Positions 8,477-60,329 of a DNA stretch of 64,000 nt are shown here, piece by piece. The translations under genes and the position numbers were made by a program. Origin of the DNA: an uncultured bacterium (GTDB lineage: Bacteria > Patescibacteriota > Microgenomatia > UBA1400 > PJMF01); the NCBI GenBank assembly GCA_903842795.1, contig CAIMNJ010000018.1, positions 67,246-131,245 of the forward strand. The letters run 5' to 3'. Every line of letters starts with the position of its first letter. Position 1 is the first letter of the stretch. The notes under the pieces are model-generated. The model did no database searches. It was not told the origin of the DNA and worked only from the letters and a program-made list of their open reading frames with translations.

Positions 8477-10438
8477 CTAAACAGTTTTTTGAAGAGCGTA
8501 TATTCTTCTAATGCCATCTGCCACTGCTTTCTCTTTGGCAAGAACAATTTTCCCAATTACACCAGTATGTTCTACGTGAGGGCCAGAACAGAACTCGCGA
8601 GAAATATAATCTTTTCCTCTCATGGTCCCAGTTGGATTTTGACCAATAGAATAAATGTTGACTATATCTGGATATTTATCCACAAAAAGTGCTACTGCCC
8701 CAGATTTTAAGGCTTCGGTTTTTGGCATAGTTTGTTTACTAACCGCGTAGTCGGCAGCAATCCATTGATTAATTAAATCTTCAATCTTGGTTTTTTCTTC
8801 TGCAGTCAAAGCTTTGGAGTAAGAAAAATCGAAACGTAAACGTTCTGCAGTAATATTCGAGCCTTTTTGCTCAACAGATTCACCCAAAACCAAACGTAAA
8901 GCCGCATGCAATAAGTGAGTAACAGTGTGATATTTGACTGTCATCTCACCTTGATCTGCTAAGCCACTCTTAAATTTACTAGTTGAGCCAGATTTAGAAT
9001 CATTAGAATGAGCTTGTTTTTGTTGCGCATATAATTCCTTAATTTTATCTTCAATCACCAAACCCCTAACCTGAGCTTCTTCAAGTGACAATTCCAAAGG
9101 AAAACCAAAGCTTTCATAAAGTTTAAAAGCTAAGTAAGCAGTTAGTTCATTTTGATGGACGACCATTCTTTCAAATTCTCTTAAACCTTTGCTTAAACTT
9201 TTACTGAATTTAAGCTGTTCAGCTTGCAAAACCTGACTAATTTTTTCTTCTTGATCCTTTAGATGTGGATAAAAATCAGCATAAATACCAATCACTACTG
9301 GCACAAGCTCAACCAAGGTTTCTTGTTTGATTTCCAAATAAGCTGCTTGACGCAAAGCGCGACGCAACAAACGACGCAACACATAACCTTGTTCTTTACT
9401 TGAAGGAAAAACTCCATCAGACATTAGCATTACAGCTGCTTTCATATGATCAGCAATAATACGAAAATATTTCTTGTTTACTTCTTCCTCATATTTATGA
9501 CTAGTGAAAGACTGAATCTTTTCAATCAGTGGCCAAAATGCAGCTGTTTTAAATACATCAGCCTGATTTTGATAAGCAGCTAAAATTCTTTCCAATCCGC
9601 CACCAAAATCAATATTGGCTTGAGCCAAAGGCTCAAACCCTTTGTTTGTCTTCTGATACTGCATGAAAACCGAATTACCAATTTCTAAAAATCTACCGCA
9701 GTCACAATTAATATGACAAGGACCTTCAGTTTGATGAATTTTTTTGGCTAACTCGCTGGTTTGCTCACCAAAATCATAAAAAACTTCACTGTCTGGACCG
9801 CCCAATTCACCAATAGGCATATTGGCTGGCACACCAGAACGAGACCACCAATTTTTTTTCTCTCCATAAAAAAAGATACGCCCCTCTTGCAAACCCTTTT
9901 CTGGGTTGGCAATAATCTTAGCTTCAATCTTCATTTCAGAAAAATGTTTTTGCCACTCCGTTGCTGCAAAATCATCACGCTCAATACCTAGATCCTTATT
10001 GCCAGAAAAACAAGACACATAAAGCTTATTTGGATCTAAATTTAATTCTTTGGTTAAAAAACCAAAAATAAAACCTATTTGCTCTTTTTTAAAGTAATCA
10101 CCAAAAGACCAATTGCCAAGCATCTCAAAAAAAGTAGTGTGTCTATTGTCACCAACTTCTTCAATATCATCAGCACGAAAACATTTTTGTGAATCAGCCA
10201 CTCTCTTACCCTCAGGATGAGTTTCGCCAAAAAAATAAGGAATCATCGCCTGCATACCAGAACTAGAAAACAACGTAGTGGGATCATTTTCGGGCACCAA
10301 AGGAGCAGAAGGCACTATCTTATGATTTAAGGTGCTTAAGTAAGCTAAATATTTTTGACGAATAAAAGACAAGTCTGACATGGTCGCTATTATATTTTGG
10401 ACCCTGTCTTTTTGCAAAGCAAAAAGCAGCTGGTACAA
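8477..10438 (-). CDS. alaS: Alanine--tRNA ligase (short form, 653 aa)
   Basis: Class II AlaRS catalytic core motifs (FSSSGMQAMIPYF, FRADDIEEVGDNRHTTFFEMLGNWSFGDYFK) and an editing-domain HxxxH...TAERLRFDF block. The C-terminal C-Ala/oligomerisation region found in ~870-aa enzymes is missing. Confidence 0.92.
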   Translation of the reverse strand: MYQLLFALQKDRVQNIIATMSDLSFIRQKYLAYLSTLNHKIVPSAPLVPENDPTTLFSSSGMQAMIPYFFGETHPEGKRVADSQKCFRADDIEEVGDNRHTTFFEMLGNWSFGDYFKKEQIGFIFGFLTKELNLDPNKLYVSCFSGNKDLGIERDDFAATEWQKHFSEMKIEAKIIANPEKGLQEGRIFFYGEKKNWWSRSGVPANMPIGELGGPDSEVFYDFGEQTSELAKKIHQTEGPCHINCDCGRFLEIGNSVFMQYQKTNKGFEPLAQANIDFGGGLERILAAYQNQADVFKTAAFWPLIEKIQSFTSHKYEEEVNKKYFRIIADHMKAAVMLMSDGVFPSSKEQGYVLRRLLRRALRQAAYLEIKQETLVELVPVVIGIYADFYPHLKDQEEKISQVLQAEQLKFSKSLSKGLREFERMVVHQNELTAYLAFKLYESFGFPLELSLEEAQVRGLVIEDKIKELYAQQKQAHSNDSKSGSTSKFKSGLADQGEMTVKYHTVTHLLHAALRLVLGESVEQKGSNITAERLRFDFSYSKALTAEEKTKIEDLINQWIAADYAVSKQTMPKTEALKSGAVALFVDKYPDIVNIYSIGQNPTGTMRGKDYISREFCSGPHVEHTGVIGKIVLAKEKAVADGIRRIYALQKTV

Positions 10439-10560
10439 AAGATGCTGTGCATATTTTGAACATCTTGAAAAAAGATGCTGTGCATATTTTGAACATCTTG
10501 AAAAAAGATGCTTTAGCGAATTTTAGAAACTCACGCTTTTTGCAAAGCAAAAAGCTAAAT
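10398..10560. repeat. Intergenic repeat/palindrome cluster in the alaS 5' leader (copy 1 of a family also seen at 30962-31060)
   Basis: Two perfect 19-nt palindromes CTTTTTGCTTTGCAAAAAG lie at ~10408-10426 and ~10536-10554. They flank a 33-bp unit (AAGATGCTGTGCATATTTTGAACATCTTGAAAA) repeated twice in tandem, plus a degenerate third copy (AAGATGCTTTAGCGAATTTTAG...). Confidence 0.7.
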
Positions 10561-10935
10561 CCCTTTAAATTTGTGTTTTTTATTGCGAGCGCGGCGTCGA
10601 CTCAATTTTGCAAGATGAGCCAATTCTTTTTCTACTGTATTGCTCTCAAAAGCAACTTTCATGCTAGCAAAAGAGTCAGCAAGTTTCTTTAAATATTGAT
10701 CACGAAAATCTTCCAAAGAAATATTTTTATCTTCAATTAACCCTTGTTGATATAAATAATCCCTAACCTCCAACCATTTGTCTGAAAGTTGTCTCCATTT
10801 CTTACTACCGGCTTCGCTAGCAAAATAAGAAAAAATAGCACCCAAGCTAAAAGCACCAGCAAATAACAATAAAGAATTACTCTCTGTCTTTGACATCAAG
10901 TTTTTTGCCTTCTTTATTTGATTCTTTAGCCCCAT
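10555..10935 (-). CDS. Hypothetical small membrane protein (YtxH-like architecture; the start may be the internal Met at ~10896)
   Basis: 126-aa ORF with one hydrophobic helix (SLLLFAGAFSLGAIFSYFA) followed by a charged, helical region. It overlaps the upstream ORF by 59 nt unless the later start is used. Confidence 0.45.
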   Translation of the reverse strand: MGLKNQIKKAKNLMSKTESNSLLLFAGAFSLGAIFSYFASEAGSKKWRQLSDKWLEVRDYLYQQGLIEDKNISLEDFRDQYLKKLADSFASMKVAFESNTVEKELAHLAKLSRRRARNKKHKFKGI

Positions 10936-28463: not shown

Positions 28464-30866
28464 TTAATATCTTCTGTCGCCGCGATCTCCACCACGGTCA
28501 CCACCTCTTCCACCAAAGGAAGGACGGCGGTCGTAACCACCTCTATTGCCGCGATCTCCACGATCTCCGCCAAAGCGGCGACCACCACCAAAACCACCTC
28601 TGTCACCACCGCGACCGCGACCATTATCATCGCTTTCGCCACGAGCAGCCTTGGCAGCTTTAGCAGCTTCTTCTTGTTCTTTAGTGAGCATAGTCAAAGC
28701 AATCTTACCTTCTGGGTTGTATTCTTTGACACGAACATGAACAATGTCGCCAACTTTGTAAAGATCGTTAGCATCTTTGACATATTCGGTGGACATATTG
28801 GAAACATGCACTAGGCCTTCACGACCTGGTAAGAATTCGACAAAAGCACCATAACCCTCAACACGAGTAATACTGCCGTCAAATTCGTCATCGACTTTGA
28901 CTTCTCTGGTAATATCTTCAATCATCTTGACTGCACGATCAATCGCAGCTTGGTCTGGAGAAGAAACATTGATGACACCAGTTTTATTTTCTTTGTCTTC
29001 CTCAACATTCACTTCGGCACCAGATTTCTCGATAATATCTTTGATTACTGAGCCACCAGAACCGATGACGGCGCCAATTTTCTCAGCTGGAATAACCACT
29101 TGAGCTACTTTTGGAGCATATTGGCTCAAAGCAGTTCTTGGTTCGCTAATACATTTCATCATTTCACCCATGATATGCAATCTGCCTTCAAGAGCTTGAC
29201 CAAGAGCTTTGACCAAAACTTCTTTTGGAATACCTTTGAGCTTAATATCCATCTGGATAGCAGTGATACCTTCTTTGGTACCAGCCACTTTGAAATCCAT
29301 ATCACCAACATGATCTTCCAAACCTTGAATATCTGACAAAACAACAAATTTCTCACCATCAGACATTAAACCCATAGCAATACCTGCAACTGGTTTCTTA
29401 AGAGGTACACCAGCAGCCATCAAAGCCATAGTAGAGCCACAGACAGAAGCCTGAGAAGTTGAACCATTAGAACTCATAATGTTACTGACCACATGAATGG
29501 TGTATGGAAATTCTGCTTGATTTGGCACCATTGGCAAAAGGGCGCGCTCAGCCAAAGCACCATGACCAATTTCACGTCTCTTTGGATAACCAATACGTCC
29601 AGCTTCACCAGAAGCATATGGAGGCATATCGTAGTGGTGGAAATAGTGACGAGTTTGTTCACCAGCCATATCCTCCACTAATTGACCAAGAGATGGATCA
29701 CCAAGAGTGACCACGGTTAAAGCTTGAGTGGCTCCACGTTTAAACATTGCACTACCATGAACTCTAGGGAGCAAATCAACTTCACACCAGATTGGTCTGA
29801 TTTCAGTGGTTTTACGGCCATCTGGACGGATACCGTCTTCAAGAATCATACGACGAGCTTCAGCTTTCATTAAATCGTGGAAAATGCTGTTTAGCATACC
29901 TTCATTTAATTCACTAACTTCACCCTCAGCTAATTTGGCAGTATCTTCGGCCAAAATTTGAGCAATTAAGTCACTTAAACCAGTTGACTCAAGACGACCT
30001 TCTTTATTAACCATGTCGTTGATTTGAGTTTTGTAAGTACTGACCAAACGATCAACAATTGTTTGCTTAGCAGCAACTTTTTCTGGATCTTCTGCATCGA
30101 CCAAGACAAGCTTCTCTTTGCCAATTTCGGCAGCTACGGCCTCAATTTGTTCACAAATTTTGGTAGCCTCATCTTGAGCTCTAAGTAAAGCCTCAATCAT
30201 GATTTCTTCAGCAACCTCATTGGCTCCAGCCTCCACCATCACGATGGAATTCTTTGAAGCGGACACGATCAAATCAAGATCATTACCTTCGGTCTGACTA
30301 CGCAAAGGATTAATGATGAATTGTTTATTTTCATCCAAACCAAGACGCATGCCAGCAACTGGACCATCAAATGGAATATCTGAAATTTGTAAAGCAATAG
30401 CAGTGCTAAGCAAAGCGATCATATCTGGCTCATTCTCGCCATCATAAGATAGAACTGTACTGATTACCTGTACTTCATTGGTAATGCCATCTGGGAAAAG
30501 TGGGCGCATGGTGCGATCGATAACACGAGCACGAAGCACACTATCATCAGTGGGACGACCATCACGCTTGACCCAGCGAGAACCTTTGATGATGCCGCCA
30601 GCGAAAAGTTTTTCCACAAATTCAACTGACAATGGGAAATAGCCAAGATTGACTTTTCTGCCCAAAGCGACAGTGGTGTGAACAATTGTTTCACCACAAG
30701 TGGCCAAAACAGCGGCGCTGACCTGTTCACTAAATTTTCCTACTTCAAGATGAATGACTTTGTCACCCACCACAATATCTTTCTTATAAGTATTTCCATA
30801 CTTTGGATAAGACATATTTTTCTTTCTTGCCTCGCGATCTGCGCGAGAACATTTTTGGAAATTCAA
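28464..30866 (-). CDS. pnp: Polyribonucleotide nucleotidyltransferase (PNPase) with an RGG/RGD-rich C-terminal extension
   Basis: Two RNase PH domains, KH (GSGGSVIKDIIEKSGAEV) and S1 (GYGAFVEF...GLVHVS). An additional ~60-aa tail is rich in RGG, GDRG and GGDRGG repeats. Confidence 0.95.
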   Translation of the reverse strand: MNFQKCSRADREARKKNMSYPKYGNTYKKDIVVGDKVIHLEVGKFSEQVSAAVLATCGETIVHTTVALGRKVNLGYFPLSVEFVEKLFAGGIIKGSRWVKRDGRPTDDSVLRARVIDRTMRPLFPDGITNEVQVISTVLSYDGENEPDMIALLSTAIALQISDIPFDGPVAGMRLGLDENKQFIINPLRSQTEGNDLDLIVSASKNSIVMVEAGANEVAEEIMIEALLRAQDEATKICEQIEAVAAEIGKEKLVLVDAEDPEKVAAKQTIVDRLVSTYKTQINDMVNKEGRLESTGLSDLIAQILAEDTAKLAEGEVSELNEGMLNSIFHDLMKAEARRMILEDGIRPDGRKTTEIRPIWCEVDLLPRVHGSAMFKRGATQALTVVTLGDPSLGQLVEDMAGEQTRHYFHHYDMPPYASGEAGRIGYPKRREIGHGALAERALLPMVPNQAEFPYTIHVVSNIMSSNGSTSQASVCGSTMALMAAGVPLKKPVAGIAMGLMSDGEKFVVLSDIQGLEDHVGDMDFKVAGTKEGITAIQMDIKLKGIPKEVLVKALGQALEGRLHIMGEMMKCISEPRTALSQYAPKVAQVVIPAEKIGAVIGSGGSVIKDIIEKSGAEVNVEEDKENKTGVINVSSPDQAAIDRAVKMIEDITREVKVDDEFDGSITRVEGYGAFVEFLPGREGLVHVSNMSTEYVKDANDLYKVGDIVHVRVKEYNPEGKIALTMLTKEQEEAAKAAKAARGESDDNGRGRGGDRGGFGGGRRFGGDRGDRGNRGGYDRRPSFGGRGGDRGGDRGDRRY

Positions 30867-30961
30867 AGTGAGTGAGTATTCTGAAAAGAAGAGAAGAAAT
30901 TCTCGTCTTTTTGGAATCCTCGAAAACTCTCTTGAACTTCCTAATTAATATAGGGCTATTA

Positions 30962-31060
30962 TATTTCAGACCCTGTCTTTTTGCAATTTATTGAAAAAAG
31001 CAGCTGGTATGAAAGATGCTTTAGCGAAATTCAGACCCTTGGTATGAAAGATGCTGTGCA
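30962..31060. repeat. Intergenic repeat element in the pnp leader (copy 2 of the family seen at 10398-10560)
   Basis: CAGACCCTGTCTTTTTGCAATTTATTGAAAAAAGCAGCTGGTATGAAAGATGCTTTAGCGAAATTCAGACCCTTGGTATGAAAGATGCTGTGCATAGC shares ACCCTGTCTTTTTGCAA, AAAAAGCAGCTGGTA, GATGCTTTAGCGAA and GATGCTGTGCATA with the alaS-leader locus. Confidence 0.65.
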
Positions 31061-31063
31061 TAG

Positions 31064-31092
31064 CATAAAAAAGCCTCGCTTGTGGCGAGGCT
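31064..31092 (-). terminator. Rho-independent terminator after rpsO
   Basis: On the minus strand GAAAGCCTCGCCACAAGCGAGGCTTTTTTAT: an 8-bp GC-rich stem followed by a U-run. Confidence 0.75.
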
Positions 31093-31113
31093 TTCCATAT
31101 TTCAATTGTGAAA

Positions 31114-59898: not shown

Positions 59899-59914
59899 CA
59901 AATAACTTATAAAC

Positions 59915-59951
59915 AAAAAAAGAACGGCCTTTAGCCGTTCTTTTTATTTTT
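59915..59951 (+). terminator. Rho-independent terminator
   Basis: AAAAAAAGAACGGCCTTTAGCCGTTCTTTTTATTTTTG: a 7-bp stem plus T-run after ORF 58744-59898. Confidence 0.8.
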
Positions 59952-60039
59952 GTTGCGGAACTTCGTCCTCCGTCTCCACTTCGGACACTTCTTCGCATAA
60001 GCTCAGTCGGAGTCAACGATTCATAGCTGATACAAACAA

Positions 60040-60077
60040 AAATAAAAAATCTGGCATGAGCCAGATTCTTTATTTTT
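60040..60077 (-). terminator. Rho-independent terminator downstream of tRNA-fMet
   Basis: On the minus strand ATCTGGCTCATGCCAGAT (7-bp stem) is followed by TTTTTATTTTTG, directly after the tRNA 3' end. Confidence 0.7.
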
Positions 60078-60078
60078 G

Positions 60079-60147
60079 TTGCGGAACTAGGAGTCGAACC
60101 TAGCCTGTGGGATTATGAGCCCCACGTGCACCGTACACTATCCCGCG
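60079..60147 (-). tRNA. Initiator tRNA-fMet (anticodon CAU), compact 69-nt form
   Basis: The minus strand reads CGCGGGA-TA-GTG-TACGGTG-CAC-G-TGGGG-CTCATAA-TCCCA-CAGG-CTAGG-TTCGACT-CCTAG-TTCCGCA-A. It has the C1·A72 mismatch, three consecutive G·C pairs in the anticodon stem and a CTCATAA loop, all initiator hallmarks, with a reduced D-arm. No CCA is encoded. Confidence 0.8.
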
Positions 60148-60250: not shown

Positions 60251-60324
60251 GGCGGGATAGCTCAGCTGGTTAGAGCATCGGATTCATAAACCGAAGGTCC
60301 TGAGTTCGAATCTCAGTCCCGCTA
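60251..60324 (+). tRNA. tRNA-Met (CAU; elongator, or tRNA-Ile2 if lysidinylated)
   Basis: GGCGGGA-TA-GCTC-AGCTGGTTA-GAGC-A-TCGGA-TTCATAA-ACCGA-AGGTC-CTGAG-TTCGAAT-CTCAG-TCCCGCT-A, a 74-nt cloverleaf. The anticodon is CAT. Confidence 0.85.
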
Positions 60325-60329
60325 CTTTA

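Follow-up and report, generated by a model that had tools for sequence, protein, structure and literature searches.

The question raised by this locus is why two unrelated genes, alaS and pnp, should be preceded by the same non-coding sequence in a 64,000-nucleotide (nt) stretch of DNA (hereafter, the window) from an uncultured bacterium of the phylum Patescibacteriota (contig CAIMNJ010000018.1, positions 67,246 to 131,245). The initial annotation placed the shared element in the 5' leaders of the two genes and, with reference to the classical autoregulation of alaS and pnp, proposed a common operator, a dispersed repeat of the repetitive extragenic palindromic (REP) or MITE (miniature inverted-repeat transposable element) type, or a small-RNA or processing site. 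Our analysis points, with moderate confidence, to a different answer: the element is probably a portable, hairpin-bearing upstream half of a promoter, contained in a cassette that ends at a TATAAT hexamer and marks genes of the translation machinery.

We confirmed that the regions upstream of alaS and pnp belong to one sequence family, at the positions originally reported and far above chance. The string GACCCTGTCTTTTTGCAA has exactly two copies in the window (10400-10417 and 30969-30986; ~0.11 expected with ≤3 mismatches), and the 32-nt block from GCTATTATATTT to GACCCTGTCTTTTTGCAA is 94% identical between the two loci. Other shared pieces are AAAGATGCTGTGCATA (at 10438, 10471 and 31047) and AAAGATGCTTTAGCGAA (at 10504 and 31012), and the 19-nt hairpin CTTTTTGCAAAGCAAAAAG is present twice at the alaS locus (10408-10426 and 10536-10554). 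The latter had been called a pair of perfect palindromes; the repetition is real, but the palindrome is imperfect, with 8-nt arms flanking a 3-nt centre that is not self-complementary. Similarly, the 33-bp unit said to be repeated twice is an exact tandem pair (10437-10469 and 10470-10502), but a third, partial unit comes after it. The hairpin proposed for each 33-bp unit (CATCTT/AAGATG) was recovered when the sequence was folded as single-stranded DNA; the entire alaS spacer folded into six hairpins (-31.4 kcal/mol, z = -4.06), and the pnp copy had a folding energy of -14.4 kcal/mol (z = -2.65). The element is intergenic rather than part of a coding sequence, as the upstream open reading frame (ORF) ends with a stop codon at 10555-10557 and 10381 is the start of alaS; a TTG at 10438 was considered as an alternative alaS start and rejected. 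Searches of the window for more diverged copies, using nhmmer with the --max option and an unfiltered search with covariance model R1 (described below), found only these two loci, and the R1 search recovered two full units (~86 bits each), the short unit at pnp, the distal palindrome at alaS and the 33-nt units. The extent of the element had been drawn too short, however: the shared region runs to 10386 and 30955, through a TATAAT that had been overlooked.

Read along the minus strand, on which both genes lie, the core common to the two loci is GCATC-TTTCRTACC-AG-CTGCTTTTTGC-loop-GCAAAAAGACAG-GGTCYGAAA-TATAAT. At both loci, TTGCAA and TATAAT are separated by 17 nt (10417-10389 and 30986-30958), with 10 of 12 consensus matches at alaS in a promoter scan. 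Judged by its hexamers and geometry, the shared core is well supported as a sigma-70-type promoter, in which TATAAT would be the active -10 element and transcription would start ~7 nt downstream. An imperfect inverted repeat of ~20 bp, which overlaps the core promoter elements, has the segment comprising the -35 element and the spacer as its 3' arm; its 5' arm is found at about -45 to -70, after an invariant GCATC. The distance from GCAA to TATAAT in the right arm is constant (21 nt) in all variants, and it is the left arm that adapts. The two T residues of TTGCAA stand in the loop, where there is no pairing constraint, and are still kept in most copies. The cassette is 55-70 bp long, and zero to five further hairpin units, either short units that lack the inner palindrome or full units that lack a -10 element, are found upstream. 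We also considered, and rejected, that the mirrored left arm forms a second, divergent promoter, as GATGC occupies the position where its -10 element would be.

This anatomy does not agree with a location in the 5' leaders. At alaS, TATAAT lies 7 nt from the ATG, and the alaS mRNA is therefore probably leaderless; at pnp, the element is situated upstream of the -10 element, before a leader of ~145 nt and after the rpsO terminator. An element acting at the RNA level, as a transcribed leader, a processing site, a small RNA, or a terminator or 3' stabilizer of the upstream gene, is thus highly improbable in our view. The hairpins are stable on either strand, the alaS array starts directly after the upstream stop codon, so that read-through transcripts would include it, and 14 of 1063 predicted pairs are G.T pairs, all of which would suit such a role. 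However, the element is not located between the transcription start and the start codon, element-free orthologues share the same -10 element, and stability shows no strand asymmetry. Moreover, the stems lack a U-tract and are followed by AAATATAAT or AAATTCGC; the terminator scan found no intrinsic terminator in 10250-10700, and rpsO is provided with a canonical terminator that lies immediately upstream of the pnp copy. Rfam, searched at gathering and permissive thresholds, contained no family for the element and gave chance-level matches only, and copies are also located between tRNA operons that diverge, at sites that no transcript enters from upstream.

The same family was found in related genomes. 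When 185,579 species-representative genomes were scanned for exact copies of the 18-mer TTGCAAAAAGACAGGGTC, 35 loci were found, 31 of which came from ~17 small-genome metagenome-assembled genomes (MAGs), the other four being chance matches in unrelated coding DNA. A metagenome scan in which the centre was left free (GCATCTTTNNTACC, 22-45 nt, GGGTCNNAAATATAAT) added 31 loci, including contigs of 750-840 kb with three to four strict matches each. Loci of DNA fetched from relatives are denoted below by L-numbers. Covariance model R1, built from 47 distinct units, detected 68 units on the sense strand in ~0.5 Mb of DNA fetched from related Patescibacteria, and the sense scores (57-90 bits, compared with 33-38 bits for antisense) indicated a single orientation relative to the downstream gene. 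The taxon labels of the matching records were inconsistent (Paceibacterota, Parcubacteria, Pacebacteria, Saccharibacteria, 'TM6' and 'Pseudomonadales'), and alanyl-tRNA synthetase (AlaRS) homologues were labelled Patescibacteria, Pacebacteria or Woesebacteria. Despite these mixed labels, the loci were treated as one clade of the candidate phyla radiation (CPR) because flanking orthologous proteins are 57-92% identical between loci. Judged from these matches, the cassette is specific to one Patescibacteria (CPR) clade, labelled mostly Microgenomates or Pacebacteria. We also noted that CP011212.1 (L013, L020 and L029), titled 'candidate division TM6 bacterium GW2011_GWF2_28_16', has a G+C content of 36-38% and that the proteins of its loci are ≤92% identical to those of MAGs labelled Patescibacteria or 'Pseudomonadales'; the public taxon labels of this clade are unreliable.

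The element is therefore a single dispersed family with conserved structure, present in this genome and in related genomes, as the initial annotation had proposed. Copy number is modest and not REP-like, at approximately one per 40 kb (two in the 64-kb window and three in 131 kb of alaS-anchored loci). The element had no match in IMG/VR viral contigs, PLSDB plasmids or INPHARED phages, and thus shows no sign of phage or plasmid origin. Literature searches with sequence strings and with terms for CPR or Patescibacteria promoters, leaderless genes, inverted repeats and tRNA found no description of it.

Copies are located 5' of genes throughout, and a homologous promoter stands upstream of non-homologous genes within one genome, as for alaS and pnp in the window and for five to six loci in each of the MAGs CALQZX and CAZEEV. 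The suggested link to alaS and pnp autoregulation did not hold, since the module precedes more than 25 other kinds of genes and is missing at alaS in five of six relatives and at pnp in one relative. The targets include tRNA genes (Thr, Arg, Val-gac, Val-cac, Gln, Leu-cag, Leu-tag, Ser, Lys and Asp), in which TATAAT lies 11-33 nt from the mature tRNA 5' end. For a second group of targets, namely alaS, glyS (four lineages), rpmE, yebC, tig, argS, a class II aminoacyl-tRNA synthetase, purB, a MazG-like gene and two unknown membrane proteins, the start codon lies 3-17 nt past TATAAT, which leaves no room for a Shine-Dalgarno sequence. Longer leaders were observed for pnp (~145 nt), rpsO (73 nt), rplK (105 nt), thrS (239 nt) and ileS (265 nt), and also for rpsU, and a diverged copy is located ~200 nt upstream of tmRNA in L072. 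At the expected N-terminus, the rpsU (S21) frame after the module (L007 ~4150 and L013 ~5400) lacks ATG, GTG and TTG alike, and a CTG located 9 nt past the Shine-Dalgarno sequence GGAGGTGA would yield MPIVIRAKK...; in L072 (5556-6500), an 85-aa GIY-YIG ORF immediately adjoins the tmRNA gene.

We analyzed the pairing of the two arms in a MAFFT alignment (A1) of the 47 distinct units, using 500 shuffles and controls in which the partner was slid. The paired fraction was 95.9% of cells, with changes on both sides in 7 of 19 pairs and 35 doubly changed cells; these values were reached by 0 of 500 shuffles, and pairing fell to 33-55% when the partner was slid by one to three columns. At least 12 inner-stem variants occur, each self-complementary (the centre being unconstrained), for example CTAC/GATAG, CTCC/GGAG, CACC/GGTG, CGAC/GATCG, CTCTTTTTTTGC/GCAAAAAAAGAG, CTGTTTATTTGCAAT/ATTGCAAATAAACAG, TTACAATG/CATTGTAA, CTGTTTTTTTGCAA/TTGCAAAAAAACAG, CAGCTATTTGCAAT/ATTGCAAATAGACTG and CTCCTTTTTTACAATG/CATTGTAAAAAAGGAG. 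The outer stem takes the forms CG/CG, CA/TG and TG/CA, which differ among copies within one genome (in the window, CA/TG at pnp and TG/CA at alaS), excluding a lineage-wide change of protein specificity, and all 16 distinct short units likewise showed outer-stem covariation. The loop is 3 to 12 nt long. Besides pairing, a sequence-specific constraint is indicated by the conservation of a T.C mismatch, a 2-nt AG bulge, an A bulge and GCATC on the 5' side. Judged from the compensatory changes, the hairpin pairing is under selection. The hairpin-forming capacity noted in the initial annotation is supported by the single-stranded DNA folds, and the element is very probably regulatory.

These data bear directly on the common operator, that is, a fixed double-stranded operator or activator site at which a dimeric transcription factor would bind the half-sites TTTCGKACC and GGKYCYGAAA. 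The outer half-sites are strongly conserved in sequence, they are separated by only 2-6 bp in the short units, like those of a classical palindromic operator, and the target genes resemble a regulon. However, the same half-sites are 27-38 bp apart in the full units, a spread of ~10 bp among the full units themselves; they co-vary copy by copy in one genome, which is not predicted by duplex recognition, and the sequence of the inner stem is free to change if pairing is kept. An operator of this type fits these features poorly, and we consider it very unlikely.

We compared orthologous promoters with and without the module. At rpsO, the module is present in L015 and L016, where it is joined to a TATAAT and a leader that are the same as those of the plain promoter in the window (cATGATATAAT), whereas at pnp it is present in the window and the promoter of L016 is plain (tcTGCTATAATAGCC...). 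The tRNA-Val(cac) gene has the module in L036, L053 and L069 and a plain promoter in the window (TTGTCT-17-TATAAT). At alaS, the window carries an array in a 173-nt spacer and L067 (AlaRS 87% identical) a single unit in a 77-nt spacer, whereas L068-L072 (AlaRS 76-58% identical) have plain promoters in spacers of 21-72 nt, with TATAAT 6-11 nt before the ATG and TGn in three of them. In all four comparisons, the junction between filled and empty promoters was sharp and located at the -10 element, indicating that the module has been gained and lost; in the element-free orthologues, TATAAT (often TGnTATAAT) and the sequence after it are the same. Among the relatives examined, only the closest one (L067) also has the alaS copy, and the array is expanded in the window, for which the simplest history would be a recent gain followed by tandem expansion in the lineage of the window. 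Two further observations concern the promoters of this clade in general: plain promoters are often of the extended -10 type (TGnTATAAT) with no recognizable -35 element (window 31440-31470, L016 1120-1140 and L070-L072 ~9975-9995), and, in every one of the seven genomes compared, alaS has no leader or almost none (6-11 nt).

Such gain and loss could also reflect a selfish, REP- or MITE-like hairpin that is mobilized as single-stranded DNA by an HUH/Y1-type enzyme acting in trans and whose end carries an outward -35 hexamer. Insertions would survive only 17 bp from a resident -10 element, making a hybrid promoter of the kind known for insertion sequence (IS) ends, and the hairpin would serve mobility rather than regulation. 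The presence or absence of the module at all four orthologous promoters with a sharp -10 junction, the tandem clusters of units, and the invariant GCATC 5' of every hairpin together with the conserved mismatches and bulges, as in protein-recognized hairpins, all agree with this explanation; in addition, the plain orthologues are -35-independent TGn promoters, which a -35 donor could replace. The resemblance to MITEs is partial: the element has terminal inverted repeats (TTTCRTACC.../...GGTCYGAAA) and insertion polymorphism between relatives, but no target-site duplication, a defining feature of MITEs, was found at the three filled/empty pairs inspected (alaS, pnp and rpsO). Orientation relative to the downstream gene is fixed in all copies, the copy number is low, viral, plasmid and phage collections gave no match, and no transposase gene was identified, though no genome-wide search for one was made. 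Furthermore, the same tRNA operons are filled in genomes whose flanking proteins are 60-90% identical, which indicates long persistence. We therefore grant a selfish element a modest chance, while considering it unlikely overall.

The preferred interpretation is that of the portable promoter half. The cassette would supply the TTGCAA -35 element and the fixed 21-nt stretch leading to a resident TATAAT; it would drive alaS (leaderless) and pnp (with its ~145-nt leader) in the window and, elsewhere, tRNA operons, other aminoacyl-tRNA synthetases, ribosomal proteins, tig, yebC and tmRNA. In this manner, it would give the translation machinery common, probably high and co-ordinated expression. The hairpin would be a functional structure, most likely a cruciform or hairpin that occludes the -35 element or is read by a structure-specific protein, rather than a linear operator. 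With low confidence, we favour such a structure acting in situ over a propagation hairpin, because the targets and the orientation are uniform and orthologous loci have kept the pairing over long divergence.

Several points weigh against this interpretation. We infer promoter activity from consensus and geometry only, and the -35 hexamer reads ATGCAA, AAGCAA, CTGCAA, GTGCAA or TTGTAA in ~10-15% of copies, so that it may not be an essential part. The translation apparatus accounts for ~23 of 28 distinct kinds of targets, an apparent enrichment among loci that were mostly found via the element itself and not by a whole-genome promoter census. The search pattern itself fixes part of the sequence conservation in each scan, and the copies are related by descent, so that the shuffle test overstates their independence. 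The conserved T.C mismatch, AG bulge and A bulge would make cruciform extrusion energetically harder, and there was no strand bias in folding (sense, -18.23 kcal/mol; antisense, -18.27 kcal/mol; 15 and 14 units, respectively, favour each strand).

A stronger version of the proposal, speculative and with a small chance of being correct, is a natural structure-gated promoter, in which negative supercoiling, arising partly from its own strong transcription, extrudes the inverted repeat as a cruciform. Extrusion would take the -35 element and spacer out of the duplex, or build a site for a junction- or hairpin-binding protein. A cruciform-regulated promoter was selected in the laboratory on a plasmid by Horwitz and Loeb in 1988, as cited in PMC6060812; according to that account, an inverted repeat overlapped the -35 element and spacer, and extrusion under negative supercoiling would remove the duplex promoter. 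Compared with the promoter as described there (PMC6060812), the module would be natural, multi-copy and evolutionarily maintained, its extrusion is putative, and its stems contain conserved mismatches. If this version is correct, the module would be a factor-poor global switch tying tRNA, synthetase and ribosomal protein expression to DNA topology or growth state in these genome-reduced bacteria, and its compensatory promoter evolution would be direct evidence of selection on DNA secondary structure.

Features of the alaS and pnp loci in the window are listed in Table 1.

Table 1. Positions of the hairpin-promoter units and neighbouring features at the alaS and pnp loci (window coordinates)
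Feature	Position	Strand	Description
Full hairpin-promoter unit, alaS	10389..10445	-	GCATC, left arm TTTTGTACC-AG-CTGCTTTTTGC, loop TTT, right arm GCAAAAAGACAG-GGTCCAAAA, TATAAT; R1 86.2 bits; predicted hairpin
-35-like TTGCAA, alaS	10412..10417	-	Within right arm and loop of hairpin
-10 TATAAT, alaS	10389..10394	-	Separated by 7 nt (AGCGACC) from the ATG at 10381-10379
Two exact 33-nt tandem units TATGCACAGCATCTTTTTTCAAGATGTTCAAAA	10437..10502	-	CATCTT/AAGATG hairpin in each; weak R1 matches (12.2 bits each)
Degenerate unit CGTGAGTTTCTAAAAT-TCGCTAAAGCATC and linker to first 33-nt unit	10503..10535	-	Arranged as TTGCAAAAAGCGTGAGGGTCCGAAATTCGC in L022 and L025
Distal inner-palindrome copy CTTTTTGC-TTT-GCAAAAAG	10536..10554	-	Directly after upstream ORF stop (10555-10557); partial R1 match, 16.4 bits
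alaS, 634 aa	8477..10381	-	Pfam tRNA-synt_2c and tRNA_SAD on identical protein; homologues named alanine--tRNA ligase
Full hairpin-promoter unit, pnp	30958..31019	-	GCATC-TTTCATACC-AG-CTGCTTTTTTCAA-TAAA-TTGCAAAAAGACAG-GGTCTGAAA-TATAAT; R1 85.9 bits
-35 element, pnp	30981-30986	-	Promoter scan
-10 element, pnp	30958-30963	-	Promoter scan
Short hairpin unit TTTCATACC-AA-GGGTCTGAAT, left-boundary motif TATGCACAGCATC	31022..31062	-	R1 23.6 bits at 31022-31054
rpsO intrinsic terminator AAAGCCTCGC-CACAA-GCGAGGCTTTTTT	31067..31094	-	Read from sequence; adjoins the pnp copy upstream and delimits the element, not part of it
pnp 5' leader, ~145 nt	30816..30957	-	Downstream of the element; begins with TATATTAATTAGG box
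pnp, 783 aa	28464..30815	-	88% identity to polynucleotide phosphorylase (PNPase) ORFs of L015 and L016

The full unit at alaS is identical to units in L055 and L060. From comparison of GATGTTCAAAATATGCACAGCATCTTTTTTCAA with AAGGTCCGAAATTCGCTTTGCATCTTTCGTACCAA, the 33-nt units are, on sequence grounds, diverged short units, which have their own CATCTT/AAGATG hairpin in place of the canonical TTTCGTACC/GGTCCGAAA stem, and the distal palindrome with CGTGAGTTTCTAAAAT is, by the same kind of comparison, a degenerate upstream unit, likewise found in L022 and L025. In an exact-protein look-up, contigs encoding an AlaRS identical to that of the window shared the 173-nt spacer. AlaRS proteins in this clade (the window protein and homologues P0001-P0120) are 619-684 aa long, compared with 876 aa in E. 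coli, and evidently lack the C-Ala domain at the C-terminus.

Short units like that at pnp are also present in L015, L016 and L047. The pnp leader, which lies downstream of the element, is conserved with that of L016, whose pnp promoter is plain. A GC-rich hairpin (CTCGCG-CAGA-TCGCGAG, 30831-30847) is located in this leader ~20 nt before the ATG, with a different hairpin in the same place in L016, and may be the actual site for pnp autoregulation or for RNase III, which the initial annotation sought in the shared element. The C-terminal tail of PNPase (~60 residues; 28464-28620, minus strand) is of low complexity and RGG/GDR-rich (GRGRGGDRGGFGGGRRFGGDRGDRGNRGGYDRR...), which is unusual for a bacterial PNPase. 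A second, conserved box resembling CTT(A)TTAAT(T/A)(A/G)TTAA occurs at ~+7 to +20 after the -10 element in the leaders of rpsO, pnp, rpsU and ileS (window 31400-31470 and 30940-30957, both on the minus strand; L007, L013, L015, L016, L032 and L047), with or without the hairpin module, and may be a shared leader or operator motif. In the rpsO 5' region (window 31327-31435, minus strand), a sub-threshold match to the Rfam S15 leader RF00114 (30 bits, gathering threshold 39.5, E = 5.8e-5) suggests that S15 autoregulation is retained at rpsO. Elsewhere in the window, two similar blocks consisting of a hairpin and a T-run (59912-59962 and 60038-60088), both ending in TTTTTGTTGCGGAACT and forming one repeat family, adjoin divergent tRNA-Met genes (60078-60147, minus strand; 60251-60325, plus strand), the second block overlapping the 3' end of one of them.

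Among known systems, the closest concept is the putative mobile promoter, together with hybrid promoters formed from IS or MITE ends. Putative mobile promoters and promoter reuse were described by Matus-Garcia, Nijveen and van Passel in 2012 (PMC3488235; PMC3575422), and the cassette resembles them in being near-identical, promoter-bearing intergenic DNA found at non-homologous genes in a genome and common to related genomes (PMC3488235; PMC3575422). Unlike them, the module lies only upstream of the -10 element, contains a hairpin with compensatory evolution and is concentrated on translation-machinery genes. It also persists at orthologous tRNA operons across 60-90% protein identity. IS and MITE ends, such as those of the Correia elements of Neisseria (~100-150 bp), create hybrid promoters by means of outward -35 hexamers. 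As in these elements, an inverted repeat provides a -35 hexamer at the right distance from a -10 element, and its presence or absence alters the architecture of orthologous promoters; however, no target-site duplication or transposase partner was seen, the orientation is single, the length is 55-70 bp, and the -10 element is resident, being shared with element-free orthologues.

REP sequences and bacterial interspersed mosaic elements (BIMEs), which are associated with RAYT transposases, have a GTAG flank and hundreds of copies in both orientations, mostly 3' of genes. The cassette shares with them imperfect palindromes, a conserved short 5' flank, arrays and confinement to intergenic DNA, but its flank is GCATC, its copies number approximately one per 40 kb, lie 5' of genes in a fixed orientation and are always fused to a -10 element, so that it lacks defining features of REPs. 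The rrn and tRNA promoters of E. coli carry an UP element and Fis sites, without arm complementarity or compensatory change. The module resembles these in comprising conserved, sometimes repeated DNA upstream of the -35 element, with a T-tract at ~-45 to -50, at stable-RNA and translation genes; it has no sequence similarity to them and differs in its complementary arms.

To our knowledge, hardly anything has been learned of how transcription is controlled in Patescibacteria (CPR), which are uncultured and have genomes of ~0.75-0.85 Mb with few recognizable regulators. In this context, the module is a searchable signature of a putative translation-machinery regulon, and leaderless and near-leaderless starts appear to be common in the clade. 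Orthologous genes swap promoter architecture, between a TGn extended -10 element and a cassette-supplied -35 element, on short evolutionary timescales. The module would further represent a rare case of promoter DNA with RNA-like compensatory evolution, which implies selection on a DNA hairpin or cruciform or on its recognition. Finally, the cassette offers a candidate for a strong native promoter in the genetic tools for Patescibacteria that are now in development.

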